A stretch of DNA of 64,000 nt from a virus (taxonomy: Duplodnaviria > Caudoviricetes), in the IMG/VR virus record IMGVR_UViG_3300044530_001128, positions 1,186-65,185 of that record; one strand, 5' to 3'. This document shows, piece after piece, positions 2,228 through 62,307 of this stretch. The stretch's first letter is position 1. Each line of letters opens with the position of its first letter. The translations under genes and the position numbers were made by a program. The notes below the pieces were generated by a model. It had not been told where the DNA came from. It did no database searches and worked only from the letters and a program-made list of their open reading frames with translations.

Positions 2228-2245
2228 TTTGCAAACGGTTGCAAA

Positions 2246-2974
2246 ATGCCCTTAGAAACCGACGAGCAAAACCTAGCCATAGGCCCCAGCGTCCATCTGT
2301 TTCAGTTGGACGCAACCAGCCTTGGCGGGACCATCGAACATTTCACCAACACCACGGATTTGGAGGGGCCTAACAACGGCCTTGTCAGCTTCGGCGGACA
2401 GGTGTACACCCCCATCGATATCCAAGTCGATGGCTTCGAAGTATCCGGTCGCGGGCAGTTGCCCACCCCTGTCGTGAGGTTCGCCAACACGCAGCGTACC
2501 CTGACGGCGGCCACCACGCAGTACAAAGATTTCGTCGGAGCCAAGATCACGCGTATTCGCACTCTGGCGAAGTATCTGGATGGATGGCCCGATGCGGACC
2601 CCACCGCTTTCTGGCCGCCAGACGTTTACCGGGTGGCCCAGAAATCGGGGCAGAACCGGCTATTCATCGAATTCAAATTGGAGGCGTGGACGGACCTAGA
2701 GGGCGAAAGCCTTCCGGGCCGTAAGATCACCCGTAATTACTGTCGTCGGGTATATCGAATGTTCGACCCCGAGACGCAGAATTTGGTTTACTCCAAAGGG
2801 GATTTCGTGGCAGACTGTCCCTATGTAGGAGATACCTACTATACGATCCTCGGGGCGGTTACCGGGGACATGTCTAAAGACGTTTGCGGGAAGCAGTATT
2901 CGGATTGCAAGAAGCGGTTCGGCACTGAGCCCATTCCGGGCTACCACTTCCCCGGCGCTGGAAGGATGCGGTAA
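2246..2974 (+). CDS. L: Minor tail protein L
   Basis: RIRTLAKYLDG...ADP motif and C-terminal Cys cluster (C..CPY...DVCGKQYSDCKKRFG) typical of gpL. Confidence 0.93.
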   Translation: MPLETDEQNLAIGPSVHLFQLDATSLGGTIEHFTNTTDLEGPNNGLVSFGGQVYTPIDIQVDGFEVSGRGQLPTPVVRFANTQRTLTAATTQYKDFVGAKITRIRTLAKYLDGWPDADPTAFWPPDVYRVAQKSGQNRLFIEFKLEAWTDLEGESLPGRKITRNYCRRVYRMFDPETQNLVYSKGDFVADCPYVGDTYYTILGAVTGDMSKDVCGKQYSDCKKRFGTEPIPGYHFPGAGRMR

Positions 2975-3705
2975 TGTTCAGCGTTGCACCCAATCTACTT
3001 GAAGACATGAAGCGCCACGCCATGGAGCAATTCCCCGAAGAGAGTTGCGGGGTGCTTACTGAGGATGCGTACATCCCCATCCCAAACGTGGCCGAGCAGC
3101 CTCATGTGGATTTCCTCATGGCGGCGGCCCCGTGGCATGAGTTGTATCTTTCCGGCGTAGTCCGTGCCGTCGTGCACAGTCACTCCTCTGGTACGGCGCA
3201 CCCCAGCAAGAGCGACATGATCAGCCAGCGGGACGTAGCCCTCCCCTTCGGCATTGTCGTCATGAACAACAAGACTTCCGTCCGGGAAGTTTTTTGGTTT
3301 GGGGATCAAGCCCGGGACATGACCCGTCCCTACGAAGGGCGAGTGTTCCGGCACGGGGTGGATGACTGTTACGAACTTGCCCGGGAATGGTACAAGCGCG
3401 AGCGAAACGTGTCGCTGCCGTACTTCCCCCGCAACGCCAACTGGTGGAACACCGGCGACGAAGTGCTGCGCGATAACTTCGCGGACATGGGGTTCAAGGA
3501 AATCGACTTCCGGCAGCTTAAGCCGGGTGACGCCCTTCTCATGCACATCATGTCGCAGAAAATCAATCACTGCGGCGTGTACTCGGGGAACGACATTCTC
3601 CTACACCATCTGTGGGGCTCCGAGAACCGTGTCCGCTATTCCCGACGCGACAACATCCATGCGTGGCGCAGCAGCATTTCCAAGTGCCTGCGTTACGCTC
3701 CGTAA
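2974..3705 (+). CDS. K: Tail assembly protein K (JAB/MPN plus NlpC/P60)
   Basis: PEESCG...VHSH...PSKSD JAB motif, then GVDDCY...NHCGVY...LHH NlpC/P60 motif. Confidence 0.93.
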   Translation: MFSVAPNLLEDMKRHAMEQFPEESCGVLTEDAYIPIPNVAEQPHVDFLMAAAPWHELYLSGVVRAVVHSHSSGTAHPSKSDMISQRDVALPFGIVVMNNKTSVREVFWFGDQARDMTRPYEGRVFRHGVDDCYELAREWYKRERNVSLPYFPRNANWWNTGDEVLRDNFADMGFKEIDFRQLKPGDALLMHIMSQKINHCGVYSGNDILLHHLWGSENRVRYSRRDNIHAWRSSISKCLRYAP

Positions 3706-3726
3706 CTTTTGCAAACGGTTGCAAAC

Positions 3727-4452
3727 ATGGTCGTCAAGCGCAAAGTACACTTCCACGGGCATCTAGCCGAAGAGCTTGGTCGCCAGACCTTTACGCTCGC
3801 CGCTAACAGCCCCGCGCATGCCTTGCGCATCGTTGACGCCAACTACCCGGGAGCGGTGTCCCGGGCCTTTCGCGAAGGCAGTTACCGGATCATTCTCGGG
3901 GACCTTGCCAACGACAACGCCCTGCACCCGGACATGGTGGATTTCAACTGTCCGCAAGGACAGGACATTCATTTCGTTCCGGTACCCTTCGGCTCGGGCG
4001 GCGGTAACAAGGGCGGAGTGTTCGGCATCATTCTCGGAGTGTTGCTTATCGCCGTCGCTATCGCCGCAACTCCGTTTACTGGAGGTATGTCTCTGGCCGC
4101 TGCGGGCAGCTTGATGGCTAGCACGACTTTTCTGGGCATATCCATGTCCAGTATAGCGTTGTTCGGCGCGGCCCTTGTGTTGGGCGGCGTAGCGCAGTTG
4201 CTAACGCCCACACCATCGCAAGAGGATGGGCTTATACCTGACGCTGACGTGACCAGCGACAATTCCGACAAGCGCTCCAGCTTCCTGTTCAACGGGGTTA
4301 TCAATTCCGAGGAAGAGGGAATGTGCGTGCCTGTGTGCTACGGCTTCTTTCGCTGCGGCAGCATCGTGGTATCGGGTGGCGTCTTCCATGAGCGCATCGA
4401 TCCGAATGCTACCGACATCACTTCCCCCGCTGTTGTAGACGTGGACATCTAA
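3727..4452 (+). CDS. I: Tail assembly protein I
   Basis: Ubiquitin-like N-terminus, hydrophobic Gly-rich middle, SFLFNG...G.CVPVCYG...GSIVVS motif. ATG at 3727 is preferred over TTG at 3709, which lies inside a palindrome. Confidence 0.9.
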   Translation: MVVKRKVHFHGHLAEELGRQTFTLAANSPAHALRIVDANYPGAVSRAFREGSYRIILGDLANDNALHPDMVDFNCPQGQDIHFVPVPFGSGGGNKGGVFGIILGVLLIAVAIAATPFTGGMSLAAAGSLMASTTFLGISMSSIALFGAALVLGGVAQLLTPTPSQEDGLIPDADVTSDNSDKRSSFLFNGVINSEEEGMCVPVCYGFFRCGSIVVSGGVFHERIDPNATDITSPAVVDVDI

Positions 4453-4454
4453 TC

Positions 4455-7400: not shown

Positions 7401-9458
7401 GCCGTGCCCGGGGTCACCACGCTAACACTGGACCCGGCACCGACCACCAGCTACACAAAGCGTGAATGGTCCGTGTGGCGTAACGGCTCGCTGGTCGTGC
7501 ATTCTGAAATGACCGTCGTGGACATGGACCTCGTCAATCCCGCGTCCGGGATTACCGAAACGGTCGAGACGGATTTGCTAACGTTTGCAAATCCTCTGCC
7601 GTTCGCCCCGCAGTCGGAAGCGATGTTCAATCTGCTATCGAACAACGTGGAGCCCCGCCAGTTTCGTATCTTGGTTAACAAGGAATTGGATAATCTCCAG
7701 TTCGAGATCACGGCTATTGAGCATGATCCGACCAAGTACGCCCGCATCGAGAACAACATCCTTGTAACCCCGATCAAGAAACAGATCGACGTTAACACCC
7801 CGCTTACTCCTATTCCGTCGCTGACTGCCGTCGAACAGCTTTACAAGGCTAGCGGCGTGACTAAGAGCCGTATTACCGTAAGCTGGGAGGGCGACACCGA
7901 TGCCCGGGTGACCCACTACAAGCTACAGGTTCGGTTCAACGGGGCAGAGTGGCAAGACCTAGCCGTTACTCCGGGCACGTCCTTCACCATGGACAATACC
8001 GGTGTTGGCGAGTACATCTTCGGGGTCAAGAAGTACGGCACGTTCGTCCCTGCGACGGATTGGAAGTACGTCACAATCAATGCACTCGGCAAGTCGGCTC
8101 CCCCGGCGGATGTGGCTAACTTGACCGCAGTGCGTACAGTAAATGGCGTACAGTTGTCGTGGGACAAAGTAGTTGACCTCGATGTCGTCGGCTACGAAAT
8201 CCGCGAAGGAGTTTCGTGGGATACCTACACGAAGGTGATCACTGCGGACCTCCGTGGCACGTCTTTCTATGTCCAGATTGACGACAAGCTAGACCATACG
8301 TTTCATGTCAAGGCTATTGACGAGGTCCCGCAATACAGCACCAGCCCCGCTACCATTGTCACGTCGGTAAGTGCACCCGGCGATGTGACAGGGTTCGCGT
8401 CTATCCCTGACGACGACCGCGTACAGTTTCGTTGGGACAAGGTACTTGGTGAAAACGTACGGTACGAAATCCGGGAAGGGGCTAGTTTTGGTTCGGGCGT
8501 ACCGGTAGGCGTGTTCGGCGGCACCACCGCCAACGTCCTGTATCCTAATTCGGGCGACCGGATATTTTGGATTAAGGCGCTGTCGTCTGTCGGCCTGTAC
8601 AGCGTCAATGCAGCCACGACCTCCGTGCTTGTGCAATACGTTGTGAGCCGTAACGAGATATTCGAGGCGGTGCAGTCCGTACTTGGATGGCCCGGGGTAC
8701 CCCACGAACTGGAAGTCAGCGCTGGGCAACTTAAATTCCCTAGCGCCAGTACCCAAATGGTGGGAACCTATTACTACGAATTTGACACGGGCCTTTACGC
8801 GAAGGTTCGTACGTGGCACGACTACAGCATCGCAGTCGATCTAGCCACTCCGACTTGGGCGGCGGCTACTTTCACTTGGAGTAGCCCGGACGCGCAAAAC
8901 TTGGTATGGACACCGCGAGGGGACCTTGAAGGCTCCAGAGCGGAGAGCCGTATCTCTACCAAGTTGGCGACGATCCCCTCCCCCATTGTCGAAGCCTTTA
9001 GGCTCGATAATTCAACCACTGGCATTAGGGGCACGACCATCGGGGCAAGCGCAGGTATCGCCTACGCCCCGGCTAGGTTCGCGGACGGTCTTGTGCTTGA
9101 ACAGACGATGTCTGCGACATGGGCTATCGCTATCCCATCCACCTTCAACTACACCTTCACTATCAGGTTCACACCGCTGCCCTCAGAAGCCTGCCGTTAC
9201 TGGAGAATATACAACGGTGGGGGCGGTTGGCTGGAGCTTTGGTACTACGAAGACACGGCGGAAGTCGGCCTGCTCGGGAGCGACGGTAACGAAATAAAGT
9301 TGTCGCTTTCTCTTTTGGTCGATGATATAGTCACCTTCGGTGTCGCGCAGTCCAGCACACAACGCGGGTTCTATATCTCCAATCTCCGAAGCGGAGTATC
9401 TTTGCAAACGGTTGCAAATCATTCCGCCATCGGGGCGTTCACTCATATGGCAATCTAG
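4455..9458 (+). CDS. J: Central tail fibre / tip host-specificity protein J
   Basis: 1667 aa. LSEGPV.G, WDGSFKQEWTDNPAW and YCDELVPDGFGGVEPRF motifs; C-terminal FN3-like repeats. Confidence 0.95.
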   Translation: MPDGILPNRGVAVPQGAGGKSGSPAPQQQQVYRPVQTPDSIRSKAIARFTEVLSEGPVKGPKNAGQSFTFGGTPLQNGDGTYNYKGVFTDFRYGYPTQDPFVGLTDVETEVNVDQQAKASLNIAEKAVVTNGGSGYSSEPDVTFPNNPGMTGYATVSGGKVVSVTLTGFGANIVTATVPVTFTGGGGTGAAAYCTVGGGVIRTIANEDLDALRVTMRVDALYAQTDKGDLYGNSIQFRWQIKPNGEDWQLPDWPGLFSPLATGSLTTPVASGIAATVSTTLTKTGPWELKVEYTQAGLEGSGPWYELGSDSGQFTADKDLTGQVKTAYIERTFYTKTPAFGTTAYTFRIVKGTRVNVGYYSNDGVISISEKNMSPVDMQYRIALPAGKAPWQVRLQRFKKDATDTKIQDTFSWRSYTEITEARMMYADTACVNYTVDSQYFGNQISTRGVDMYGRIISVPSNYYPVDPNVRHVIGYNTNFTSNLSSALWNWDRSNVNMTSRTAVPASPTGYDSIMTSTAGNTLIVQSNPYTGSERQWTAVAIVNPNKGTTPLSRALRLGFGYTGPGASYVQWTPSTNAVTAAAGASWVVDDYDVTPLNDGYYRLRITVTATVDIVFTRAYLQVLATLTGETYCVSGITAVAGPNLLTFTETGDVNPATSNGPVLGARYGQDRYYDGLWDGSFKQEWTDNPAWCFHDMVTHRRYGCGRYINANAVDAAALYQIGKYCDELVPDGFGGVEPRFTLNVQIKNDEQAYTVLNTMVSAFRGILFWAAGYVGAAADMPRATQRLVSRANVVGGDFNYVGTARKARHSVASVKWVNPEDRWQNNYEIVEDPELVSRFGYNATSVVGFGVTSRGLARRLGLWILDTEKYASEMVTYKAGIDHIDAAPGEIISIADPAYAGIRQGGRLKGGATTTTATMDAPYTFNADEEYSATVQIPSWGKVTSTANVANITGVGTKFTYNIQVGDMFMFKDVPQQFKVTAVPGVTTLTLDPAPTTSYTKREWSVWRNGSLVVHSEMTVVDMDLVNPASGITETVETDLLTFANPLPFAPQSEAMFNLLSNNVEPRQFRILVNKELDNLQFEITAIEHDPTKYARIENNILVTPIKKQIDVNTPLTPIPSLTAVEQLYKASGVTKSRITVSWEGDTDARVTHYKLQVRFNGAEWQDLAVTPGTSFTMDNTGVGEYIFGVKKYGTFVPATDWKYVTINALGKSAPPADVANLTAVRTVNGVQLSWDKVVDLDVVGYEIREGVSWDTYTKVITADLRGTSFYVQIDDKLDHTFHVKAIDEVPQYSTSPATIVTSVSAPGDVTGFASIPDDDRVQFRWDKVLGENVRYEIREGASFGSGVPVGVFGGTTANVLYPNSGDRIFWIKALSSVGLYSVNAATTSVLVQYVVSRNEIFEAVQSVLGWPGVPHELEVSAGQLKFPSASTQMVGTYYYEFDTGLYAKVRTWHDYSIAVDLATPTWAAATFTWSSPDAQNLVWTPRGDLEGSRAESRISTKLATIPSPIVEAFRLDNSTTGIRGTTIGASAGIAYAPARFADGLVLEQTMSATWAIAIPSTFNYTFTIRFTPLPSEACRYWRIYNGGGGWLELWYYEDTAEVGLLGSDGNEIKLSLSLLVDDIVTFGVAQSSTQRGFYISNLRSGVSLQTVANHSAIGAFTHMAI

Positions 9459-9470
9459 GAGGGACTAAAC

Positions 9471-9980: not shown

Positions 9981-12184
9981 TGACTACCACCAGCATTAGC
10001 GTAACCCCGGGCGCAGACTGGACTTGGGCCACGGCTACATGGCCGTGGGACGATGCGTACGCAGGGGCCTTTTGGTCCGCTGCGTACCCCGGGGACTACA
10101 CGCTCGATGCTGGAGAATTTGTTGCGTCGCAGGGCAATTACCTGCAACTCAGCGGCGCGGCCGTAGGGACTTATCCCACAGATTTCCCTGCGGGTACTTA
10201 TACCGCTATGACTTTCGAGGGGTGGTTTCGCACCAACGCAGCGCAGACAGGCGGCCCCACTGTTATGGTTATCGGGGCCATCAACAATTTCCTGTCGTTC
10301 AGTAACGATGTCCCCAATCGTCTACGCGTCAAGGTAGGCTCAGCCAATACCTTGGCGTACCTAGCGATCACCACTGGTGCGTGGTACCACGTTGCAGTGA
10401 CGTATGATGCTAACGCTTTAGACGGTAACATTTTCAAAGTATATCTTAACGGGGCGTTAGCCTCGTCCAGCACTCTTGCATGGGCGTCTTACACCCCGGC
10501 GGCCGGGGCTAAGGTATTGTTGCCCGCCTCCGCTACTTATACAGGGGCTCTACGAGGTGTGCGGATATGGAACTACGCCCGTTCGCAGAAAGAGATCAAT
10601 GACTGGCGGTTCCGTAACGCCAATAGTCTTGACCCGCGCCTGCTGTTCCATGTTCCCGTCATTCAGGATGACCATCAGAACGAGAAACAGGCGGCTACGG
10701 CTAATCAATTAAAAGTAACGGACACTATGGCTTCTCCGTGGAGCCTCGTGCGTTCCACTAAAACTAATAACGCCGCCACTGATCCGCTAGGCGGCAACAC
10801 TGCTATTAAACTTGCGGTGGATGCGTCGGGCACTACCTCCCATTATGTGCGCTATCAGGCAACAGCCGACGTAGATTTGTGGACTTTTGAAGTCTTTGTT
10901 AAGGCCGCAGAAATGCGATACGTGTGGCTTGCCATCGACCTCGGCTTTATCGGCGGCGGCAATCAGTATCTATTCTTTGACATGTTGACAGGAGTATTCA
11001 CCACTGCCCCGGACTCCCGGTATCCCTATTACTCTTCGTTGGATGTCGGGAATGGGTGGTATGTGCTTACCCTGACTGGAAATATCGTGAATGCCGTTGC
11101 AGATTATCTCTACATCGGCGCGGCCGACACGCCCACAAGTACGGTCACTACCGCAGCGGTCGGCTCTGGCATCTACGTGTGGGGTCCCCAATGGGAGAAG
11201 GGTTTCCCCACGCCGTATGCCGCAAACCCTACCAGTACGGCTGGCGGCACTCCGCGCACCGCAGATCGGCCCGCTATTGGAACTAACACGTTTGGGCAGG
11301 ACGGCGGGGGTATCGATGCCGTCTACAAGGATACCGTGAAAGGTAACTTTGCCGAGACACTAACTCTTGCCGAAGTAGGATGGCGCGGACCCGAGGGTAA
11401 CTACCCCGAGACGCTGGCCGTTGCCGAAGTGTACAGCGATTTGTTCAACGCGATCATGAATATCGGAGAGACGGTCAATTTTGCAGACGTTTGCAAAAAA
11501 GACGCCAGTATTATCAAGGCCGAGGTAATGGCTCTCGCGGAAGTTATTCGTAAAGGACCGGGATTGAATGTAGGCGAAACACTCGCCCTTGCGGAGAGTT
11601 ATACCGCAGCCGCAGGCTTCATACGCGTTATCGCGGAAACGCTGAACATAGTTGACGCGGTTCGTAAAAATCCCACCAAGAATGTTCCAGAACTTCTACG
11701 AGCGATTGACTACATTCTACGCAAAGGGGATGGCGTACTAGCCGACGCGTCCTTCGAGAATGTATTCCTTACCCCGGAAGCGTTCATTGCTAGGTTTGTT
11801 GATCCAGTGCCGCCGGGATACACTGGCTGGACGCAATTTCTGCCGGGTGATTACGAGTACAAAACCGCCCTAGTTGAAACTAAGCTCATTAGGGAGCATT
11901 TGACGCAGGACACCCGACTTACCCGCTCAGAGATACGAGCCGATATGCCCGACTTGCTGGAGAGCGGGGAATACACGGTGGCGTTGACTTCTGGCACCGA
12001 GACGGTATCGCTTACCAAACCGTTTACTGCGGTAAACGATGTGCAGATCACAGGTGTATCGGGGGCGGTGGTTACTACCCCTCGGGTGCCCAGCTACACG
12101 ACTACAGGCTTCAACATCGAACTTAGAGACTCGGCTAATGTACGCCAAGTCGGCGTTATCCGTTATACTGTGAGGGGGTACTAG
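9980..12184 (+). CDS. LamG/concanavalin-like domain tail protein
   Basis: TFEGWFR...WYHVAVTYD...VYLNG...VRIWNYARS LamG signature; E-T-L-x-L-A-E repeats in the C-terminal half. Confidence 0.8.
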   Translation: MTTTSISVTPGADWTWATATWPWDDAYAGAFWSAAYPGDYTLDAGEFVASQGNYLQLSGAAVGTYPTDFPAGTYTAMTFEGWFRTNAAQTGGPTVMVIGAINNFLSFSNDVPNRLRVKVGSANTLAYLAITTGAWYHVAVTYDANALDGNIFKVYLNGALASSSTLAWASYTPAAGAKVLLPASATYTGALRGVRIWNYARSQKEINDWRFRNANSLDPRLLFHVPVIQDDHQNEKQAATANQLKVTDTMASPWSLVRSTKTNNAATDPLGGNTAIKLAVDASGTTSHYVRYQATADVDLWTFEVFVKAAEMRYVWLAIDLGFIGGGNQYLFFDMLTGVFTTAPDSRYPYYSSLDVGNGWYVLTLTGNIVNAVADYLYIGAADTPTSTVTTAAVGSGIYVWGPQWEKGFPTPYAANPTSTAGGTPRTADRPAIGTNTFGQDGGGIDAVYKDTVKGNFAETLTLAEVGWRGPEGNYPETLAVAEVYSDLFNAIMNIGETVNFADVCKKDASIIKAEVMALAEVIRKGPGLNVGETLALAESYTAAAGFIRVIAETLNIVDAVRKNPTKNVPELLRAIDYILRKGDGVLADASFENVFLTPEAFIARFVDPVPPGYTGWTQFLPGDYEYKTALVETKLIREHLTQDTRLTRSEIRADMPDLLESGEYTVALTSGTETVSLTKPFTAVNDVQITGVSGAVVTTPRVPSYTTTGFNIELRDSANVRQVGVIRYTVRGY

Positions 12185-13228: not shown

Positions 13229-14005
13229 ATGCTCATGCAAACCCCGATGGGATTTTTCGGAAAGACGGAATTCAAGGTTTCCGTCACCACGGCCATCAGC
13301 CAGACCAGTTTGCGTACGCTTGCAAATAATGCAGGGTACGGCGGCGGCGGACCCTGCACGATCACGATCACTGGTACGGGCTCGATAAAGTCGAACTCTA
13401 CCGCCACTCCTTCGCTCACGCGAGGTACGTGGCCCGCAGGTGTCGTACCGACGTTGATCATACTGTCAGGCGGCAAAATCGAAGGCTGCGACGGAGCCCA
13501 CGGCAACGGCGGCGCTGGTGGAATATTCGGTGTTGCAGACGCGTCTAATGGCGGTGCTGGCGGCGCTGGCGGCCTTGCCCTGTCTGTCGACAGTGATGTC
13601 ACCATCGACAATGCTGGCCTTATAAACGGAGGCAAGGGAGGCGGTGGCGGTGGCGGCGGCGGGAACTGGACAGGGACCAGCACACCCGACCCCTTGAGTG
13701 TCTACGCTCAAGGCGGGGCGGGAGGCAACGCGCCGGGCGGGACTGGCGTAGCAGGTTCCGTAAACACCAATGGCCCTCTTACCTCCACAGGAGGCACCGG
13801 AGGCAACGCTGGTGCGCAAGGCGCAGCGGGAGGCGCTGGCGGCGCTGGAAGTAACGGTGGCACGGGCTCCTCCTCCGGTGGCGGCACGGATACTTGGGGC
13901 ACCATCGGCCTTGGGGGCTCGGGCGGGGCCGGGGGCGGGGCCGTAGTCGGCAACGCTTTTATCACATGGCTCGCCACCGGTACGCGCAATGGCAGCATCA
14001 CGTAA
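13229..14005 (+). CDS. Glycine-rich tail fibre tip/adhesin (T-even gp38-like)
   Basis: IDNAGLINGG.GGGGGGGG and GGAGG repeats; follows the fibre gene. Confidence 0.7.
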   Translation: MLMQTPMGFFGKTEFKVSVTTAISQTSLRTLANNAGYGGGGPCTITITGTGSIKSNSTATPSLTRGTWPAGVVPTLIILSGGKIEGCDGAHGNGGAGGIFGVADASNGGAGGAGGLALSVDSDVTIDNAGLINGGKGGGGGGGGGNWTGTSTPDPLSVYAQGGAGGNAPGGTGVAGSVNTNGPLTSTGGTGGNAGAQGAAGGAGGAGSNGGTGSSSGGGTDTWGTIGLGGSGGAGGGAVVGNAFITWLATGTRNGSIT

Positions 14006-15000: not shown

Positions 15001-15061
15001 TAATGTTTCTAACACGGACACATAAGTCCTATTTGCAAACGAATGCAAACGCAGGCCGCCC

Positions 15062-17160: not shown

Positions 17161-17261
17161 GAAACTCTTTGCATTCGTTTGCAAACGGGTGTAAAGTCCA
17201 AAGGTCGGGATGAGCCGACGTGAATTGTAGCCAAAACCTTCAACGTTAAAGGATGATCACC

Positions 17262-18722: not shown

Positions 18723-18759
18723 CCCCCGGACCTGAGACATGGTCCGGGGGTTTTCTTTT
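18723..18759 (+). terminator. Intrinsic terminator
   Basis: CCCCCGGACC-loop-GGTCCGGGGG followed by TTTTCTTT. Confidence 0.85.
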
Positions 18760-18802
18760 GCAACCACTTGCAATCCCCTAGATACCGTGCTTATAATTAT
18801 CT

Positions 18803-19330: not shown

Positions 19331-19397
19331 TACCCCCCATTTGCTAACCTGATGGCGAGCCCTTATACTTTTGCAATCGTCTGCAAACGAGCGAGCC

Positions 19398-20582
19398 ATG
19401 GCCCTTCATCCCCGAGAATTACGAGCCCTAGAGAAACAACGCCGCTTCATCGATATGTATTCGGCGGGGACCACCAGTTTTCGTCAAAGGCTCCAAGCAA
19501 TAGCGGACGGACCCGCCAGAGTACCGGAGCAACCCAACGCAGCGATAGTGGAAGAGGCAGCGGCTAGCAGCGCTGCCGCAGCGTTTCTGCGTCGAGATAG
19601 GGAGCCGCGCAGCATAGCCGCTGCGGTAAGCAACGTGGTGACTCCTACGCCCGCACCATCCACTACTTTCCAAGGCATCATCGATAGCCTACGAGAGGCA
19701 GCGCCGCGTGCCATGGCTTGGGCGGACTCCCTGCGCGCACTCCGTAGAAGTCAAACAGTAAATCTACAAAGGCCGATGGTCCGCCGTGATGGAGGCAACG
19801 ACTTCGTCTTCACGCGCCATGGGCTCAGACGTGGAGACATGTCCATGGGGTTCGAAGTCGTGAACGTGGTACATGACAGTGGAGAAATGCGTCTTGTTGA
19901 TCTGCAACAGGCTGGCGTGTATGACCACGGAGACGCCCTAGCAGAAGCCCGGGTGCGCTTAAACCGTCAGATGGCGGATGCCGAGGAAGAAATCTTTAGA
20001 GCGTCCACCACCCCTTCGGGGGCACGTCGGCAGGCAGAGTTACACGCCGCAGTCATGCGAGATACGATGACCGAGGGCATCGTGGAGGAGCGCACCATCG
20101 CGCGTCTATATACAACGTCATTCATTGCCGATATAGCCGATTTGCGCGAAGTGTCGTACGACACGCTAACGCGGGCTAAGCATGAACTGCCGGGGATCAA
20201 AAGCTTGAGCCCGCTGATAAGGAATGTCGAGGCATGTTACCTAGCGGAAGACCATTCCGTGGCGTTCGGCGTCGGTATAAACCATCCGGTCACTGACAGT
20301 TGGCGAGAGGATATTCGCCAGTACAAGGCGGCTCTGCTCTCGGTGTGCATCTACTTCGCTAAGCGCGGGGTGCCGTGCAAGGTCACCGACCCCGCCACCG
20401 GATCGAGCAAGGTATCTTTGCAATCGTTTGCAAACGATCTGCAGGGACTCACGCCTGTGCAGCCGCGTGTTATCGCGGGGGCCAAGCAAAAGACGACCAC
20501 TCCGCGCTTGTCATCCACTAGCCGTCGTCGTACACTTCTCTTGCTTAAATCTAACCGGAGCAACCGTAATGGCACTGATTAA
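19398..20582 (+). CDS. Hypothetical protein
   Basis: Long ORF with ATG just after a palindrome; overlaps the start of the AAA gene. Confidence 0.65.
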   Translation: MALHPRELRALEKQRRFIDMYSAGTTSFRQRLQAIADGPARVPEQPNAAIVEEAAASSAAAAFLRRDREPRSIAAAVSNVVTPTPAPSTTFQGIIDSLREAAPRAMAWADSLRALRRSQTVNLQRPMVRRDGGNDFVFTRHGLRRGDMSMGFEVVNVVHDSGEMRLVDLQQAGVYDHGDALAEARVRLNRQMADAEEEIFRASTTPSGARRQAELHAAVMRDTMTEGIVEERTIARLYTTSFIADIADLREVSYDTLTRAKHELPGIKSLSPLIRNVEACYLAEDHSVAFGVGINHPVTDSWREDIRQYKAALLSVCIYFAKRGVPCKVTDPATGSSKVSLQSFANDLQGLTPVQPRVIAGAKQKTTTPRLSSTSRRRTLLLLKSNRSNRNGTD

Positions 20583-43180: not shown

Positions 43181-43765
43181 ATGCCTATAAAGACCTCCCT
43201 CCACTTAAGCCTAACGCCATACCAGCAGCGGAAAGGAAAGCCGCGAACGCGAATGTTGGCGAAGCGCGCACACGACCCGGCCTCTATAGACCTCTCCACC
43301 TTGGACCTAAAAATGATGGCAAAGCGGTCACCCAAGGTGCCAGCGGCGGACAGCTACATCGACCAATTGGGAGAGCCCTTCAACTACCACGGAAAGCCGA
43401 CTAGGGCTTACGATCTGCAAACGATTGCAAAGCTCGTGCGGCGGGACTATTTCAAGCTGTACAATCTGCACAAGCGGGGGATGCTTCCGCCGCCTGCGGT
43501 GCTGTACGTCCCGCACGGTAAAACTCGACAAATCCCTTTCTGGATTGCGCCGCAGGTGCGCGCCGTCGTTCGTATGTTCAACCGCATCCACCATGAGCTT
43601 ATAAGCAAGGGCTTCCGGGACGTGTTCAATACGGCTATCCGGGACGAACTGCTACGAGACGCAGACGAGGGTATCGGCCGCTTGCTTGGTACGGACCGCC
43701 AAGCGGAGCGAGACGAATTCTTAAAGATCGCCGGTCCGTTCGGAGTGATCTGGCTCGAAAGGTGA
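43181..43765 (+). CDS. MerR-like HTH protein (paralogue of 36596..37171); start uncertain
   Basis: YDLQTIAKLVRRDYFKLYNLHKRGMLPPP resembles LSIRGLSIVLGRDYNTIINWIKRELLPAP. Confidence 0.6.
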   Translation: MPIKTSLHLSLTPYQQRKGKPRTRMLAKRAHDPASIDLSTLDLKMMAKRSPKVPAADSYIDQLGEPFNYHGKPTRAYDLQTIAKLVRRDYFKLYNLHKRGMLPPPAVLYVPHGKTRQIPFWIAPQVRAVVRMFNRIHHELISKGFRDVFNTAIRDELLRDADEGIGRLLGTDRQAERDEFLKIAGPFGVIWLER

Positions 43766-45243
43766 CAGCGATATCCCCAGCCAAGAAAGACGGTTCGGGA
43801 TATCATTGCGAAGTTAGCTCGTTCTACAATACGGCGGTATTACTACCACTCGGGGAACGTTCAAAAATGAAACGCAAGCTTCCAGCAGAGCAGCCTACCC
43901 TCCCGCTTGACGACACGCCAAATCCGCCACCCTACGCCCCTCTACACCCGGCTTTCGTCGGGGTATCTAGGGTGCTACACGTAGGGGCCGTGGACGCCCG
44001 GAACCTAGACGGGCCGGGGTTCACCGTGAACCTCAATCTCGGGACCTGTACGTGTAACCATGGCGAGCCCTATCAATGGGATGCCACCACGCAGCCCGGC
44101 AAATGGATCGCCAACAAGCACTGCATCCACAAGATCAGGGCGGTTGCCGATCTGATCCGTCGCCACCCGGACGAACACACCAAGGGCCACGACCGCCATC
44201 TGATGATGGCGGGGTACATCAAAATGGTCGGCGGTCGGTACAACAAGTACGAGGCCGTCAGCGCGTTCCACAAGGAACTACGGCGCGGGGACGTGCCAGC
44301 CGCCTACTATTGGGGATGCGTGCTTTCCCACTACCGAGGCATCAAGGGCGTTATCAAGTATCTCTTCAATATCGTTTTCGAGGAGGGCCGGGACTTCACG
44401 TTAGCCGAGTGGCTCATGGGTCGTCTCAACGCGGCAGACTTCACGCCCACTACCTGTCACAACGCTATCCGCTTGTTCTGCCTCTCCAAAAAGAAATGGG
44501 AGCTTCCTCACCGGATGCCCATCCTTGAAGCAGAAATGCGGGCGTACGGTCGGCTGGTAGCTCGCTATGGGCAAGCGGTCGCCAAGGCGTCGCATATCAT
44601 CGACGCCGCAGAGCAGCCGACGCTTGTAAAGGTCCTTCTGCAATCGCTTGCAAAAAAGGACCTAGTCGGCTTTCAATTCGGGCTCAAGGGCCTGCAGAAA
44701 ATGAACGACGAGCGGGGACCCAAGAAGCTAGACCTCTGGCGCGCGGACATCGCCAACATTCTGCTAACGGAAGCGGAACGCCTGCGGTTGCCGGTGCTAC
44801 AAGCCCCCTATTTCGAGCAATACAACGCGTTTCTTGCCACCCGTGCCAGCACCGGCCACGGTATCGGCTACCACGAATTAAACGCCCTCGCGGACATGCT
44901 AATCGGGGAGCCCTATGGCGCGGGCAACACTTCGGCCGACATGCTGGAATGGGCGAATACCAGCAGGACCCTGCCCGACATACAGCTAGGCATCTTGAAG
45001 CATATCCCTCTGTATGCGCAGGATAACCATACCTATGTCGGCAAGACGTTCATCCGGTCCTATCCGCATGAGCTTAAAGCCGGGGCCGAGCAAAAGAACA
45101 TGGACCTTCGTGGCTGCGGGGCGTACATGGGCGTTACATGGCGACACCTAGCAGTAGCCCAGCATGGGTCCACCAACTGCGCATGGGGCGAAGTTGACTG
45201 GCCCAAGTGGCTGTACGATACTGTTATCAATCTTTTTTACTAG
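43762..45243 (+). CDS. SWIM Zn finger plus RarA/MgsA C-terminal-like domain protein
   Basis: CTC...CIH SWIM motif; YEAVSAFHKELRRGD..AA.YW...EE; IPLYAQDNHT. Confidence 0.7.
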   Translation: MTAISPAKKDGSGYHCEVSSFYNTAVLLPLGERSKMKRKLPAEQPTLPLDDTPNPPPYAPLHPAFVGVSRVLHVGAVDARNLDGPGFTVNLNLGTCTCNHGEPYQWDATTQPGKWIANKHCIHKIRAVADLIRRHPDEHTKGHDRHLMMAGYIKMVGGRYNKYEAVSAFHKELRRGDVPAAYYWGCVLSHYRGIKGVIKYLFNIVFEEGRDFTLAEWLMGRLNAADFTPTTCHNAIRLFCLSKKKWELPHRMPILEAEMRAYGRLVARYGQAVAKASHIIDAAEQPTLVKVLLQSLAKKDLVGFQFGLKGLQKMNDERGPKKLDLWRADIANILLTEAERLRLPVLQAPYFEQYNAFLATRASTGHGIGYHELNALADMLIGEPYGAGNTSADMLEWANTSRTLPDIQLGILKHIPLYAQDNHTYVGKTFIRSYPHELKAGAEQKNMDLRGCGAYMGVTWRHLAVAQHGSTNCAWGEVDWPKWLYDTVINLFY

Positions 45244-46438: not shown

Positions 46439-46911
46439 GCCGTTTGCATTCGATTGCAAACCGGCTGATTGCCGGGGTACCATACGCATACCAGCCACGG
46501 AGCGCATATGGATACCGTCAAAGCATTAGGGGTAGCCCTACGGGTGATGCAGCAGCAGCATGACAAGCTCGTAGCATCCGAGGGCTACCTTACGAGCGGG
46601 GGCGCATGGCGACCGTTAGCAGGGAAGCCACGCCACAAGCAACTGGAGGACATTCATCGTGCAATTCCGGTCCTTAAGGAACTCCAACGTAGGGCTAGCG
46701 TTTAATCGCGCCGATCCCCACGTTGTTATTGTCGACAGCGCCCTGCGCCCAGACGTTGTCTGGGTGCATTTCCACGAGATCGAGTATCGCGCCTTGTCCA
46801 TCTTGCTACATGATGGCAACGGCCGGGGCATCTTCGAAGGCCCCCGCCATGATGCCAGCGAATGGCTAAAGTCCAACGGCTACACCGTAGCCTTGAACGG
46901 AGGATGGATAC

Positions 46912-48537: not shown

Positions 48538-49617
48538 CGAGTAAGCGCGGCTTTCCTTTGCGAGGGAGCCGCGCTTAACTTTGCACTCGATTGCAAACCG
48601 GGGACCCCGATGCGGGACATTGTACTCATTTATGCGGGCTCTTTGTGCGGCCACGCGCTTACCACGGTAGCTACGCCCGAAGAGGCTGGCCGGGTATTCG
48701 TGCTAGGCCCCGAGCCGCTCGACATGATCGTCATTGACGAGGTCGGGGACACCCGGGATATCGTTGAGGTTCTCAACCGTCTCCCCAAGGTTCCTGAATT
48801 GTCCCGCATGCCCGAGATCGATGATTACCCGGCATGCATCGAGGACCCCGACCAGCACGAGCGCATCGCGGCTAAGAAGGAGCGAATGCACCATGACGCT
48901 CGACCTTACCACCACAGTCTTCGTATTCGCGGGCATGGCGGCATTAGTGCTGTACGTTTCCGCAACTCTCAAATCTCACAGAAGAGACGTAAAGGGCGTT
49001 AAGGACGACGTAGACGAACTGTCGCACAATTATCTGATGATGGTGCATACAGTCAACGACATTGCCAACAGGAGGACAAGGAATGCGCAACGCACGGAAG
49101 AGACGGGTGGCACGAGCCCAGCGCAAGGTGAGGGCTTCGGCAGCGAGTACCGCGAAACAAGCGCGGATCGCAGAGCGCGTCAAGCGCGCGAACGGCGCAA
49201 GAAAAAGCGCGATCAAGAAGTCGCCAGCGATCCGCAAGCCCCGAGCCAAGAAGGTCGAGGTACAGTAAAGGTAAAGCGTTACCGGCGCGCTATGCGTGTA
49301 GTAACGACCAAAACCAATAGGAGGGTGCCCGATGTCCCTTGAGGATATTGACTACGGTGGTATCGACATCACTGTCCCGCCTCGGGCACCCTACCACATG
49401 GTTGAGCGAGAGGACGGTCGCGTTCTCTTGCTTGACCGCAACAACAACAATTGCGTGAATGGACGCAAGGGCGGGGACCAAAGCTTCCCCGACAAGGACC
49501 TCTGTCTCCGCTGGTGCGAGATACGTCGTCTCAAAGTCGAGACACGGTCGGTTTACTCCGACTAGACAATCTGCATACGATTGCAAATCGAAACTCTAGC
49601 CATTCGGGAGCATCCCT

Positions 49618-49863: not shown

Positions 49864-50499
49864 CCGACCCGGAAATCACCATCGAGTACGAGGCCACCCA
49901 TCTGCGCGACCGTCGCTACAGTGTCGCGCCCAAGGGTAAGCTCGGCACCATGGGGTGGACGCCGAAGCCGTGGACGGCTGTATTCGTCACGGCCAGCAGC
50001 CCGGTAGACGCACTCAAGCGCGCCGCCAAAGTCAGGGCGAATACCGGGAGGGACTGACATGGCTCTGGCTGTCCCTGTCCCGCTATATCGGGAATTGTTT
50101 CGTCGGACGTACGAGTACCACTTCCCCCTCTCCGACGAAACAATTGTTGACATAGTAAAGACAAAACCGATTTCCCTCCAAGGGGAGGAGGAGGTCCAAC
50201 AGTATATCCTTAATGAAATGGTCACCCGGGCCAAGATGTTCGGCCGTGGCGTGTACGCAGGGCGTGGCCTGTTGTAATGGGGAAGGTCCCTCCGCTAAAG
50301 AAGTACGTGGCCTTGTACGGAGAGCTTGAAATCAAGGTCGAGGCCACGTCTAAGGAGAATGCCCGGGTGAAAGCGGGCATACGGTGGCAGAAGCCCGAAC
50401 GGTCTTGGCCGAAGATCGAGATAATCGAATTGCCCCACTGATCGTTTTGCAATACATTGCAAATCGCCGGGCCAGCAAACCCCCGGGTAGGAGCAATCA

Positions 50500-53297: not shown

Positions 53298-53374
53298 ACT
53301 CCCCGGTTTGCAACCGAGTGCAAACCGGGTACCTTACTCGTGCCGGGGCTTTTCCCGGGAATAGGAGCAATGCG

Positions 53375-54464: not shown

Positions 54465-55088
54465 TCGTCGATCACCGGCTAGCCCCGCTATCGAAAGGTA
54501 GCGGGGCTACAGCCAGTAAGGAGGGACAGTATATGCGCTACAGGGTGGAAGTTCTCGTGAAGGTGTACGACATCAAGCGAGGCGAGACGGAAGTTTGGCA
54601 GGCCCTGCACCCCACAGGAGGTGAGCCCTATTCGTGGGGCACCCGGCGCGAAGCCGAGACTATGATGAACATGTGCTACCCGAGCCACAAGGACAAGGCC
54701 CGGGTCGTGGAGATAGCGCAATAGGCATTTTGCAATCGCGTGCAAAACAGCCCCGAGACAAGTAACCCGACCTCGCGGCGCTGATGGGGATCGGGCTATA
54801 ATGCCCCTGCCGGGAACGTCCCCGGGATAGGAGCAACCAGTTAATGATCGATGACGAACTGCGGCACGACCTCACCGACAAGTTGGACGACGAGCAAATT
54901 GCTCTGATGAATGACGCCCTTGCGCGTCCGTGCATCGTTGCCATCTTGGAGGCGCTGGTAGGTGCCGCCCTGCATCCCCACCAAGGGCAGTCCGGGGGCG
55001 AAGGGCAGATCAGCTTCAATCTCCAAATCGGGGACGACGTGGTGTCCGTCACGCTCGACCATATCTCGACCTAAGAAGGAGCAACCCA

Positions 55089-57406: not shown

Positions 57407-58287
57407 AAAACCCAATGAAATCAAGGAGTTAGCAACTCTCCGTTTTGCAACCGTGTGCAAACGTCGTACATTACTCGTGCCGGGACCGTCCCCGGGAATA
57501 GGAGCAAAGCATGTTTAATCAGGAGTTCGGTACCCACAAGACGCTGTGCCTCACGCCCAGCGGGAAGTTGGGCATCCGGTTCGACCACCTCGCTGCGGCT
57601 GTCGAGTATGTGCACGCCCGCAACGCCGCCAATCAGTGGAACGTGGTCCGCTGGTTCTCCCCGTCCAAAGCCAGCATGTCGGCCACGCCGATGCTGGAGT
57701 TCACCGCTCGCGCGCCCGAAGACATCGCACTCGTTGCACGGAGGTAGCCATGGCCGACTACTACTCAACCCGTAAGGATGGCGTCGAGTTCTTGAAGAAC
57801 GGACGCTCCCACGAACGCGTGTGGCGTAAGCAAGGCATGTCCTGCCGCGTCTACGAAGCGCACTGTCGCGCCGTCCGGGACGTGCAGTTCCGCCGTGTCA
57901 GGGAGAACCCCTATCCTCCCGGCCGTCGCCATGACACCTACGCGGCTACCATCGCCGCCAGCAAGGAGGGCTAGGCCATGCAGTTCCGTGTCTCCCTCGT
58001 AAAAACCAAAGATGGCCGGGGCACCTTCGCCCTTGTCGATGTAGCATCGTCGGGGGGCTCCTACCGAGGCGCAGGAGTTACCCGGACCTACCACACCGCG
58101 AGCCAGATGGAACGCGCCCGGCGCGAGGCCCGCACCGTTGCCAAGAGGTACTACGACAAGCACAAGACTGCTGTCACCGGCCCGATGCGTATCTGCGACG
58201 TGTAGACTGATAATACCCCGTATGTCCGAAAGGGCTTCCGGGGTATTATTTTTTTGCCGGGACCAATCCCGGGAATAGGAGCATCAA

Positions 58288-60138: not shown

Positions 60139-61489
60139 CCCTCCGGTATATGTGGCGTGGCTTTCAGATCACCACGTACCGGGGTTACGATGGTAGGTGG
60201 CTTGTCCTCCTAACGAAGGAGACAGGCAGCCACTACCACTACAGGTACGTGGGCGGGGACCGTAACCTGATCCCCGAGCTATATGAATTTCTGCACACGA
60301 TTGCAAATCCTAGACAGGAGCCGCTCACGCCTGTAGTCCTCGTCCCGGGGTTCCGTATCGCATGGGACGATCCTACCAAATCGGGGACTTATAGCCTGTC
60401 CGCTAACCCCCCAAATTTGGCCGTAGCACCCCTTCGACCGGGGGCGGGGGCTCCACCCCCTTGCCAGCCCCGCGCCCCTCTAGCGCCCCCCAGCCGTACC
60501 ATCGCAACCACGGTATGGCGTTGCCTATCCGAGCGAGCGGGGTACCTTGACTACTCCCAATCTTGGGGAGTACCCATCCACCATCTGGGGTGTATCCTAT
60601 TCTCTGTACCCCGGGGCCAACCCCCAAATGTGGTCAAGTGGGTATGGATCATAGAGCAGCCCAAGCCTGTCCGCCCAACCCGAAAAGACTGAGGGCGGGG
60701 ACCATGATACTGTACATAGCCTTCCTATTCTCTCTAGTAGATGGCAACTACTATGTAGCTGTATTGCTCTGTCTACACTACCTGACTAAGGACCTATGAC
60801 TAGAACTACCCCATTTCGCCTACTTACATAGTTCCATTGCCGTAGCGTTTGACAAGATTTCCCCATCGTAACCCCCACACAGGAAACCCAATAAAATCAA
60901 TGGTTTTGGGGACCTCTACGAACAGAAAAAATGCTTAGGGCGGGGAACATCCTACTACCCTAAACCTATCCCTTATAAGACCTATAGTATATCCATTAGT
61001 ATCTCCTACTCATCCTGTAGACAGTAAACGGGTAGGGCTAGTTCTGCCATCTAGATGTAGATCGGCTACGTGCAGGGGTCTTGTCTGTTCTATGCACTTG
61101 TATTCAGGTCTTCTGTCCGTTCCCAACGCCTGACGTGAGCAAGAAGTAGGTGATGGCGAATTTTTCACAACTATGGAAGTTGATAGTAAATAGTTATGGC
61201 CGAAGGCTCTGTAGAAGATGATGACGCGCGAGTATGGCTGAATGGGTGAATGTGAAGATGAATGTAGAAGGAGTAGGAGAAGAATGATGGAGGAGAAGAA
61301 GAGCAGATGATTGTAGGAGAAGATGGCGTGTAGAATGGGGCGGAGAAGGTGGCCTGTCTTTGCACTCGTTTGCAAATATCCGTGATGATAGTTAACTATC
61401 GTTTGCCATATACGGGGGTTACGATACACTACGAATAGCAACAGCCATTCCGGCTGGGGCAGTAGAAACAGGAAAGCGAGAACTACATC

Positions 61490-61966
61490 ATGGCTATCAA
61501 GCTCAAGACGGCCCCGGCCGTGTCCACCCCCGCCCGCAAGCTGGTGATCGCGGCGAAGCCCTCGAAGGCCAAGGCTGCGGCCCCCGTGGTGGCTGCGCCC
61601 GTGCCCGAGGTCAAGGCGACCGGCGGCAAGTCGGCCAGCGTGCCGCGCTTCATCCACCCGGTGAAGGACCTCTACGATGGGGCCTCCCCCACCACGAATT
61701 CGGGCAAGTCCCGCACGCCGTGGAAGAACGACCAGTTCGGCACCCAGCCCGACCGCTCGCTGACGCCGCGCACCGAGGCGGGGGCCAAGGCCCTGCGCGA
61801 CGTGTACGGGGCCAATCCGTTCAAGCGCGGCAACGTGGACAGCGGTGTCGCCAACGTCCTGATCCAGAAGGGCTACCTGCAGCCCCTCACCGGCGCGGGC
61901 ACCTCGGAGGAGGACACCTACAAGTTCACTCCCCCGGCACTGGCGATCAAGCTCGCCGGGGCCTAG
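61490..61966 (+). CDS. Probably highly expressed basic protein with K/A/P-rich N-terminus and wHTH-like C-terminus
   Basis: Strong codon bias, own promoter (TTGCCA-16-TACACT) and terminator; D.GVANVLIQKGYL....YKFT. Confidence 0.7.
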   Translation: MAIKLKTAPAVSTPARKLVIAAKPSKAKAAAPVVAAPVPEVKATGGKSASVPRFIHPVKDLYDGASPTTNSGKSRTPWKNDQFGTQPDRSLTPRTEAGAKALRDVYGANPFKRGNVDSGVANVLIQKGYLQPLTGAGTSEEDTYKFTPPALAIKLAGA

Positions 61967-61980
61967 TAGGCCCACACCAG

Positions 61981-62014
61981 AAGGCCCCGGGGTAATTCCT
62001 CGGGGCCTTTTTTT
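61981..62014 (+). terminator. Intrinsic terminator
   Basis: AAGGCCCCGGGG/CCTCGGGGCCTT plus T-tract. Confidence 0.85.
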
Positions 62015-62307
62015 GTCCATAGTAAATGCAAGGGGAAGTCGACAGTATATAGGAGTAGACGCGCACGCTAGAAAGATGATGAAGGAGAAGGAGTTGTGCG
62101 TTGTCCGAGAGGATGAACTAAGTCCTAGTACGTTGTGCAATGAAATGTACTAAGGTCTAGTACGTTGAATAAAGAAATGTACTAGGAGTCGTGGAGTTGG
62201 GGCTTGTATGATGAAGAAGGAGTTGTCCGTTTGCAATCGAATGCAAATATGATGACTGCCCCCCATACTCGGGGCGGGCAACCACGCCCATACAGCGGAG
62301 CAACGCT

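Follow-up and report, generated by a model that had tools for sequence, protein, structure and literature searches.

An evenly spaced, genome-wide array of 18-bp palindromes in a group of large siphophages and a candidate, possibly ParB/KorB-like, for its binding protein

Palindromic sites that are spread over a whole replicon and bound by dimeric proteins are known from bacterial cells: the Noc-NBS, SlmA-SBS and MatP-matS systems each consist of tens of palindromes distributed over a chromosome or macrodomain, with one site per tens of kb, and serve to organise the DNA instead of controlling individual genes. MatP combines a helical DNA-binding part with a ribbon-helix-helix (RHH) part that dimerises it. 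On plasmid RK2, KorB, with its ParB-family helix-turn-helix (HTH), binds palindromic OB sites (about 12 in 60 kb) both at promoters and far away from them and exerts global control; its partners are IncC and KorA, and it carries a ParB_N domain that binds CTP. We know of no report of even spacing for KorB sites. Here we describe an array of 18-bp palindromes, with the consensus TTTGCAAnCGnTTGCAAA, in a 64,000-nucleotide stretch of a Caudoviricetes genome (the window: bases 1186-65185 of the 65,185-bp virus record IMGVR_UViG_3300044530_001128, which has a CheckV completeness of 66%), and a candidate for its binder, the 466-residue product P0001 of the gene at 41462..42862 (+ strand).

Dispersed sites are also known from phages: many repressor sites are scattered over the genome in the case of the L5 stoperators, the phiC31 CIR sites and the C1 operators of P1, and stoperators are asymmetric, oriented with transcription and serve lysogeny. 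Operators of the LacI/PurR family have the overall shape TGCAAnCGnTTGCA with a central CG. The nearest printed precedent is the dyad repeat of the Cluster O mycobacteriophages (Corndog), a 17-bp TGTTCGG-N3-CCGAACA with more than 30 copies per ~70-kb genome. According to the available passages of its description, about a third of the repeats are in genes, most are not at promoters, their function is unexplained with a dimeric binder predicted by the authors, and the phages have neither an integrase nor parAB; stoperators are described there too (PMC4351075). A literature search, with supplementary files outside its range, found no printed description of the present array, and the word stem 'palindrom' is absent from the main texts of PMC7326821 and PMC8601537.

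The palindrome array and its spacing

The window has 38 matches to the consensus with at most three mismatches, while dinucleotide-preserving shuffles of the window have a mean of 0.18 and a largest count of 2; one additional site in the record upstream of the window brings the total to 39 in 65,185 bp. An initial annotation, made from the letters alone, had listed 37 starts and proposed a comparison with shuffled sequence: all 37 starts are recovered and the excess over shuffles is large, the one extra match (17178) overlapping the site at 17168. It had marked only the copy at 32263 as perfect, which is incorrect, as eight sites have no mismatch, among them those at 2228, 3708, 9401, 20417, 32263, 38217 and 41341. 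Being palindromic, the sites give equal matches on the two strands. Their centre is a degenerate nCGn; by column counts, 35 or 36 of the 38 have the CG, and columns G4, C5 and G14 are invariant over the aligned sites. In this alignment the information is confined to the 18 bp, and the 45-bp flanks on each side show neither conservation nor asymmetry. A megablast search with 12 kb of the window against a phage collection found no match. Four lake-water metagenome contigs differ from positions 26001-46000 at 27 positions, none of them within sites; with 0.3 expected this is uninformative.

The 37 non-overlapping sites are separated by 36 gaps with a mean of 1667 bp (minimum 606, maximum 3866) and a coefficient of variation (CV) of 0.43. 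Uniform placement gives a mean CV of 0.98, and in 100,000 placements not one CV was as low as 0.43 (P<1e-5), not one minimum gap was as large, and 0.2% had a maximum gap as small. The even spacing noticed in the initial annotation also survives a second null for the record, in which the numbers of coding and intergenic sites are fixed and intergenic sites are drawn from the real gaps (mean CV 0.96; P<0.0002). The under-dispersion is found in other genomes as well: when a common rule (TGCAA-N4-TTGCA with at most one mismatch) is applied to 13 genomes, 12 are more evenly spaced than the uniform null at P<0.05, the exception being G007 (CV 0.78, P=0.095), and seven of the eight genomes with gene calls are so under the coding/intergenic-preserving null too. 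Among the pooled normalised gaps, 5.1% are shorter than a quarter of the mean, with 22.1% expected.

Ad hoc gene calls gave 82 genes, 73 of them on the + strand, and a coding fraction of 0.82. The initial estimate that about half of the sites are inside coding sequences is roughly right: 16 of the 39 are within called genes and 23 are intergenic or at a gene edge, which is many more than the 18% non-coding fraction predicts (P=1.4e-8). Fifteen of the 16 coding sites share one reading frame (P=7.7e-7; the exception is 11480). This favoured frame, xT-TTG-CAA-nCG-nTT-GCA-AAx, encodes the peptide L-Q/H-x-hydrophobic-A-K/N, and the remaining two frames would, in our reading, force a cysteine and rare codons; over eight genomes the split between the frames is 82/37/17. 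The arms of the 38 sites comprise 266 base-pairs; 38 of these deviate from the consensus, six of them as G-T, and in no case does the other arm compensate. As no departure is compensated, what is conserved is something other than pairing in RNA or single-stranded DNA.

Individual sites turn over. Considering genes with an orthologue in a second genome, and defining a homologous position as one within 4 residues, five of 43 comparisons keep the coding site: three of seven in the closest pair (G001 and G005) and none of the 15 that pair the window with G003 or G006. That density and spacing persist although individual sites do not argues for selection on coverage. These data support selection that works on the DNA, at the level of the array rather than on ordinary operators, and the array very probably represents protein-binding sites selected for even coverage. 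From the dimer-lattice reading of the initial annotation, this upholds the part that concerns double-stranded sites for a symmetric dimer and array-level selection (spacing in 12 of 13 genomes, turnover with 5 of 43 kept, reading frame, lack of hairpin covariation).

The intergenic and gene-edge sites of the window (listed without strand, '.') include five perfect copies: 2228..2245, which abuts both the stop of gene 1862-2227 and the start of gene 2246-2974; 3708..3725 at the edge of the next gene, with the stop of 2974-3705 lying 2 bp before it; 20417..20434 at the start of the AAA ATPase gene (20428-22452); 32263..32280, which is intergenic; and 41341..41358, 104 bp upstream of the P0001 start codon. 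One mismatch is present in the intergenic sites 15032..15049, 17168..17185 (67 bp ahead of 17253-18614, and overlapped by the weaker 17178..17195 with two mismatches), 19370..19387, 24343..24360, 33961..33978 (promoter-like TTGACT-17-TATAGA just upstream, by eye), 46443..46460, 48580..48597 (12 bp ahead of 48610-49002), 53307..53324, 54729..54746, 57444..57461, 61359..61376 (a promoter-like match at 61403-61430 begins 27 bp after it) and 62230..62247 (60 bp ahead of 62308-62646). Two mismatches are present in 18757..18774 (centre CA, preceded by a terminator-like hairpin), 25292..25309, 49570..49587 (30 bp ahead of 49618-49863), 50446..50463 (centre AC, 36 bp ahead of 50500-50751) and 60290..60307. 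The assignment of 19370, 25292 and 60290 as intergenic follows the ad hoc gene calls.

Within genes, the only site of the window outside frame 2 is 11480..11497 (one mismatch, frame 0 of 9980-12184). The sites in frame 2 are 7574..7591 (one mismatch) and 9401..9418 (perfect, stop codon 40 bp on) in the tail protein gene 4455-9458; 13309..13326 (two mismatches) in 13229-14005; 22602..22619 (two) in 22465-22854; 26030..26047 (one) and 26993..27010 (two) in the O-like initiator gene 25791-27038; 29057..29074 (one) and the weakest site of all, 29906..29923 (three), in the PolA gene 28839-31919; 35502..35519 (one) and 36108..36125 (two) in the helicase gene 35065-36603; 38217..38234 (perfect) in the RecA-like gene 38155-39459; 39815..39832 (one) in the resolvase gene 39444-39854; 43414..43431 (one) in 43181-43765; and 44637..44654 (one) in 43762-45243.

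Two early cassettes, 53307-53370 and 57444-57507, share by eye a layout of palindrome, TAC(C/A)TTACT, GCCGGG...CCCGGG hairpin and AGGAGCA ribosome-binding site. A consensus promoter scan did not detect these cassettes and does not support the by-eye overlaps of sites with promoters.

Distribution of the array and of the P0001 family

When viral contigs were scanned for the exact pattern, 115 stretches were found, several of them on ~100-kb contigs with many matches. Ten records have 22, 40, 14, 14, 14, 33, 19, 16, 5 and 4 matches with at most two mismatches, and a reversed control pattern has 0-2 matches in the same ten. The centres are specific to the record: AACGTT in G001 and G002, AGCGCT or ATCGCT in G004 and G005, ATCGAT in G006 and G007, ATCAAT in G003 and a degenerate nCGn in G008. 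Genome-specific weight matrices found 18-73 sites per genome (shuffles 0-0.1) with gap CVs of 0.42-0.72. Altogether, a TGCAA-N4-TTGCA-type array with its own centre is present in 14 of 14 full-length or near-full-length phage records, and all 14 have a P0001-family gene too; a scan of relatives had been proposed in the initial annotation. The phages of the group are siphophages of ~100 kb (80-110 kb) with nearly all genes on one strand; array phages infect Agrobacterium, Rhodobacter, Rhizobium, Stenotrophomonas, Pseudomonas and Aeromonas and are abundant in metagenomes, and array contigs span 40-64% GC.

Six of the 14 are cultured phages (JP1, RcTiptonus, DLP5, SM1, L338C and HJ05) that were reached by protein similarity, not through the motif. 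A tblastn search with the P0001 core found JP1, four Rhodobacter phages of the RcF cluster, Stenotrophomonas phage DLP5 (two records), DLP3 and Summit. With at most one mismatch to TTGCA-N6-TGCAA, Agrobacterium phage JP1 has 39 sites and RcTiptonus and DLP5 have 26 each, with 1.2-2.2 in shuffles. Pseudomonas phage SM1 has 30 TGCAA-N4-TTGCA sites, 15 of them in the form GTGCAA-N4-TTGCAC (P0001 profile E 1.5e-46), Rhizobium phage L338C has 47 TGCAAC-N2-GTTGCA sites plus 12-13 with a 1-bp shorter spacer (P0001 profile E 1.3e-34), and Aeromonas phage HJ05 has 19 GCAA-N4-TTGC sites (P0001-family match E 1e-51). Serratia phage Tlacuache, a more distant PolA relative, has no sites and no P0001-family match.

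In a protein-first test, 56 viral loci were found through the P0001 protein alone. Of these, 29 have at least three TTGCA-N6-TGCAA sites (shuffles at most 1.0), and 13 others have another exact palindrome of the same geometry in 3-9 copies (shuffle maximum 1). The variant palindromes are TGAAAT-N2-ATTTCA, GGCAAT-N2-ATTGCC, CGCAAT-N2-ATTGCG, GTGCAC-N4-GTGCAC (TGCAC-type, in L352) and TGCAAT with another outer base. Some of these half-site changes go along with one residue of the protein, at a helix position in the family signature G-W-T-K-A: in all eight loci with a TGAAAT array (four distinct helices) the protein has G-W-A-K and the sites are 0 C/C, 33 A/A and 6 mixed, while G-W-T-K loci have mostly C/C sites and their nearest relatives (L303-L306, L309) have mixed C and A. 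The covariation of helix residue and site is suggestive; it may reflect few events, and it has exceptions.

By BLASTP, the window shares merely 3-13 genes with the other array records. Iterative profile searches found one collinear module in all seven large genomes, which in the window consists of a DnaB-like helicase (27635-28963), PolA with a UDG-like N-terminal domain (28839-31919), a primase (32695-33927), an unknown protein (34021-34950), a DEAD helicase (35065-36603), a second unknown protein (37171-38070), the RecA-like protein (38155-39459), a Cas4/PD-(D/E)XK-like nuclease (39826-40911) and P0001 (41462-42862). The P0001 family, large and uncharacterised, belongs to this replication/recombination module. 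At least one array-bearing genome lacks the AAA ATPase, and the same holds for the O-like initiator, the protein at 36596 and the resolvase.

Several observations concern single sites or neighbouring genes. In L338C (KF614509.1), the 12-13 copies with a 1-bp shorter spacer are unusual for a rigid dimeric binder. In JP1 (PQ741606.1), all nine non-CG centres read ACAT on the coding strand, never ATGT, and ATCAAT outnumbers ATTGAT 36:12 in G003 and 11:4 in DLP5; this bias may stem from synonymous ACG-to-ACA changes in the favoured frame or from strand-biased mutation. G008, a 25,952-bp viral contig, has 16-17 sites with the nCGn centre of the window and no gene in common with it, and may match the missing third of a close relative's genome. 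PolA, a family-A DNA polymerase, combines a 3'-5' exonuclease domain with an N-terminal UDG-superfamily domain (residues 100-215, E 1.4e-5); a UDG-PolA fusion is also annotated in SM1, and heavy modification is reported for the DNA of DLP5 and DLP3. Within the O-like initiator gene, two direct repeats GTGCAC-A4-5-TGCAC followed by an AT-rich stretch (26172-26240) resemble origin iterons and have the TGCA core in common with the palindrome. The region 20428-24006 encodes the AAA ATPase (PF00004, E 2.5e-30), which has an unknown N-terminal part of 400 residues, and at 23539-24006 a protein with a weak DUF1257 match (E 0.011); this module is kept in G003, G006 and G007.

The candidate binder and rival explanations

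P0001 consists of Ala/Lys/Pro (AKP)-rich tails at both its N- and C-terminal ends, a small beta domain, a core with a weak likeness to the ParB/KorB HTH and an RHH-like part predicted to dimerise. Its gene has the highest codon-model score per residue among genes of more than 150 residues and, by eye, a promoter-like TTGACA-18-TACTAT, with the perfect site 41341 ending 7 bp before it. Word-based protein searches with P0001 found one close relative, and a full HMMER search was needed to reveal the family: a profile of the core from seven genomes matched 4393 cluster representatives at E<=0.001, of which 495 at E<=1e-30. Family members have the signatures Y-R-K-A-M-Y-L-I-x-I-Y and G-W-T-K-A. In Pfam searches, 100 members had no match in the core and two had tail matches to HC2; a ParB_N domain was detected neither in P0001 nor in these 100 members, and the model works on these genomes, as it detects the domain in neighbouring genes of G003, G006 and G007. 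A 'DUF3102-like' label for P0001 was not reproduced by hidden Markov models and shows up only as a weak structural lead in the Atlas (TM score 0.38-0.41). The P0001 homologues are gp74 in JP1, gp82 in RcTiptonus and gp67 in DLP5. For DLP3, the available passages of PMC7326821 name the neighbour gp61 and RecA, not the P0001 homologue gp62. The N-termini of P0001 and of the 37171-38070 protein are near-identical and Ala/Lys-rich (MAALKK... and MAMALKK...) and are followed by AKP-rich stretches; the 37171-38070 protein is otherwise acidic, and its conserved part in relatives is only ~110 residues.

A model of the P0001 core, built from 100 sequences, has a mean pLDDT (predicted local distance difference test) of 87.3. 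By VIA-align it matches ParB-parS (6s6h; Z 7.1, root-mean-square deviation 4.2, 104 residues aligned), Spo0J (1vz0; Z 6.5), KorB (Z 5.9 and 5.4, with 1r71 and 8qa8 among the KorB structures matched) and SopB (Z 4.3), and residues 183-251 match RHH proteins, namely Reg576 (Z 6.5) and MazE, NikR and antitoxin RHH structures (Z 3.6-4.0). Noc and MatP structures are among the structural matches too, and a first, poorer model found the same structural families. The homodimer prediction for the core scores 0.55, a mark that is reached by 20 of 30 solved homo-pairs and by 1 of 23 single chains, and the best of three controls scores 0.00. Contact agreement between the homodimer runs is at least 82% and partner pLDDT at least 75. 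The RHH-like part carries the predicted interface, in which residues 188-190 pair between the copies, and the resulting symmetric dimer is, as far as the prediction goes, what a palindrome needs. P0001 is the only universal module protein that has both a DNA-binding-like fold and a predicted dimer. On balance we consider it somewhat more likely than not that the palindromes are double-stranded sites for a dimer of a phage-encoded protein, with P0001 as the most likely binder.

A number of observations weigh against this assignment or reduce its support. Records G001-G007 were found via the motif and are not independent support, and Tlacuache is the sole proper negative control genome. Among the protein-first loci, 14 of 56 have no array signal; 11 of these are short (4-12 kb), and three, L335, L338 and L344, are long (15-21 kb). 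A single evolutionary event may account for the Ala clade, a Ser at the helix position accompanies three different half-sites (TGCAAA in G001, G002 and JP1, TGCAAT in RcTiptonus, TGCAAC in L338C), and the window protein has G-Y-A-K, yet 20 of its 20 sites are C-type. P0001 has no Pfam or NCBIfam family, and its only match in PHROGs is phrog_17202, of unknown function. The fold matches are middling (Z at most 7.7, and values below 8 can reflect a common arrangement). Foldseek places mostly ParB, Noc and Spo0J on top for the core model, with probabilities of at most 0.72 and E of at least 0.69 (at least 0.37 for the first model), and a profile search of PDB sequences gave no match at E<=1; given such middling Z and E values, we regard the fold as suggestive. 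Only four of ten genomes have a site in the 400 bp upstream of the P0001 homologue, and conserved autoregulation is therefore not supported. A promoter-like scan of 45-64 kb gave 6 matches versus 6.6 in shuffles, hence no excess, and one match is near a site. Finally, P0001 is co-inherited with the rest of the module (DnaB, PolA, primase, helicase, RecA, nuclease, 34021 and 37171).

This co-inheritance of several module proteins is one reason to consider that another phage protein binds the sites while P0001 does something else, which we regard as unlikely, with a minor share of the probability. Candidates would be an unrecognised small HTH protein, given that the family-library searches covered only a minority of the small early genes of the window, or the ParB_N proteins, whose genes directly follow the P0001 homologue in G003 (8186-10755), G006 (51197-53396) and G007 (26198-28485). 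There are two such genes in each case (~235-295 and 500-530 residues); in G006 a methyltransferase and a small HTH protein come after them, and the larger gene holds one of the few position-conserved coding sites. However, the record of the window, at 66% completeness, has no ParB_N candidate, none is adjacent in G002, the four proteins listed above are missing from at least one array-bearing genome, and P0001 stands alone among the universal module proteins in its combination of fold and predicted dimer. A further rival, which we regard as improbable, is that a LacI-family repressor of the host uses the sites as its operators and is recruited or titrated by the phage, for example for sugar sensing or for derepression of a host regulon as copies multiply. 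The initial annotation had pointed to the LacI-type central CG, and the shape, a 14-18 bp palindrome with this centre, does fit. The exact 18-mer is also found in bacterial chromosomes; the 120 stretches listed come chiefly from Rhodobacterales and Rhizobiales, and five alphaproteobacterial loci (L187, L198, L242, L253 and L256) have it as a pair ~4.3 kb apart. In one of these, Roseibium sp. TrichSKD4 (L187), the two copies (882-899 and 5230-5247, in divergent regions) flank, in the manner of operators, a LacI-family gene and inositol-type catabolic genes (periplasmic sugar-binding protein, GFO/IDH/MocA, xylose-isomerase-like, TPP-enzyme, PfkB), a point that speaks against a phage binder. As the 18-mers flank this LacI gene, a host LacI-type repressor with the specificity of the palindrome would exist and could bind the phage sites in a suitable host. 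The LacI connection stands in this respect, but not for the phages themselves, as a LacI protein (PF00356) is over cut-off in none of five phage genomes. Against host operators, the arrays span many host groups and 40-64% GC, with centres of their own and some half-site changes that follow the phage protein; centres CA/TG (G003, DLP5) and TA (L332) and the shorter spacer of 12-13 L338C sites misfit read-out of a central CG by a hinge helix; and even spacing and intragenic sites would be of no obvious use to a low-copy metabolic repressor. Single genomic matches mean little in any case, with ~139 chance matches expected in 596 Gb.

It is very improbable that the palindromes act as hairpins of RNA or single-stranded DNA, such as terminators or signals for processing, priming or nicking. 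The palindrome can be folded on paper into a 7-bp stem and a 4-nt loop, every site is transcribed since all genes run in one direction, and the spacing of 1.5-2 kb resembles the length of Okazaki fragments; against this, none of the 38 arm departures is compensated, with six G-T pairs only, there is neither a T-run nor flank conservation, and sites sit within coding frames. We give scarcely any credence to mobile-element footprints, recombination linkers between modules or targets of a modification enzyme. Many sites are at gene boundaries, and the DNA of both DLP5 and DLP3 resists most restriction enzymes, according to the available passages of PMC5834331 and PMC7326821. Nevertheless, just 18 bp are conserved, without flanks or target duplication, the spacing is even rather than clustered, and 16 of the 39 sites are in-frame within genes; a modification that blocks most enzymes would be genome-wide and reach beyond 40 sites.

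Proposed role and comparison with known systems

If P0001 is the binder, each monomer would set its ParB/KorB-like HTH on one TTGCAA half-site, the RHH-like C-terminal part would join two monomers over the centre of the site, and the Lys/Ala/Pro-rich tails could contact adjacent DNA without sequence preference. Selection would ensure that no point of the chromosome is more than 1-2 kb away from a site, and sites would be written into genes where the encoded L-Q-x-x-A-K/N peptide is tolerated. The bound protein would mark or organise the whole genome rather than single promoters, and candidate roles of the bound array include condensation or looping, protection, global control of transcription and help in replication or recombination. 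A possible, though rather doubtful, extension is that these phages have a sequence-addressed chromatin of their own: a ParB-like module that lost its CTPase domain and gained histone-H1-like tails might dock as a dimer on the evenly spaced lattice, which evolution would maintain even where it fixes peptides in essential genes, and compact, insulate or shield the replicating ~100-kb chromosome, with switches of one helix residue re-addressing the lattice by lineage.

The lifestyles of the phages differ. In the available passages, DLP5 is temperate with a plasmid-like prophage (PMC5834331), DLP3 is similar to it (PMC7326821), and the Samunavirus UF_RH6 is described as lytic (PMC10281142). With both temperate (DLP5, DLP3) and lytic (Samunavirus) members, the array is not tied to one lifestyle. 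A tyrosine integrase was found in none of five genomes (the record and four relatives, including three complete genomes), in line with the initial annotation, which saw no integrase in the window. A ParA of the AAA_31 type (PF13614, the one ParA model tried) was likewise found in none of the five, three of which are 100% complete, and a classic ParABS role is not supported.

New here are the breadth of the phage group, the even spacing, the imprint on the reading frame, the finding that individual sites turn over, and a family of candidate binders that offers natural variants of specificity. Selection on the DNA sites is strong enough to imprint protein sequences. Binder and sites form a testable pair in culturable phages, and the natural variants offer material for studying the joint change of a DNA-binding protein and some 50 sites.

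Compared with Cluster O, the array is alike in having more than 30 dyad-symmetric copies genome-wide, both intergenic and intragenic and not tied to promoters (here 39 in 65 kb, 16 of them in genes). It differs in that the Cluster O repeat is unrelated in sequence, has a 7-3-7 geometry and is denser towards one genome end, and in that no binder is named in the available passages. Corndog has no P0001-family match at E<=1, hence the likeness is one of kind and not of shown descent. The comparison with L5 stoperators, drawn in the initial annotation, fails on symmetry and orientation: the present sites are palindromic, equal on both strands and without flank asymmetry or orientation, and they occur also in phages described as lytic. 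LacI/PurR operators share the shape TGCAAnCGnTTGCA, and an identical 18-mer adjoins the Roseibium LacI-family gene, whereas there is no phage LacI, and the number, spacing and intragenic placement of the sites are unlike any regulon. The 18-bp palindrome with a central CG also resembles the centromere-like parS.

By analogy, KorB-OB, Noc-NBS and MatP-matS appear to be the closest working counterparts. The P0001 core matches the DNA-binding domain of KorB (Z 5.4-5.9), but the phages have 40-70 sites per 100 kb, P0001 has no detectable ParB_N domain and AAA_31 ParA is absent from the five genomes searched. In contrast to the Noc, SlmA and MatP systems, the array belongs to a virus, has one site per 1.5-4.5 kb and has sites written into coding frames. 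Should the array indeed organise or protect the chromosome, these phages would have a counterpart of the Noc, MatP or KorB networks.

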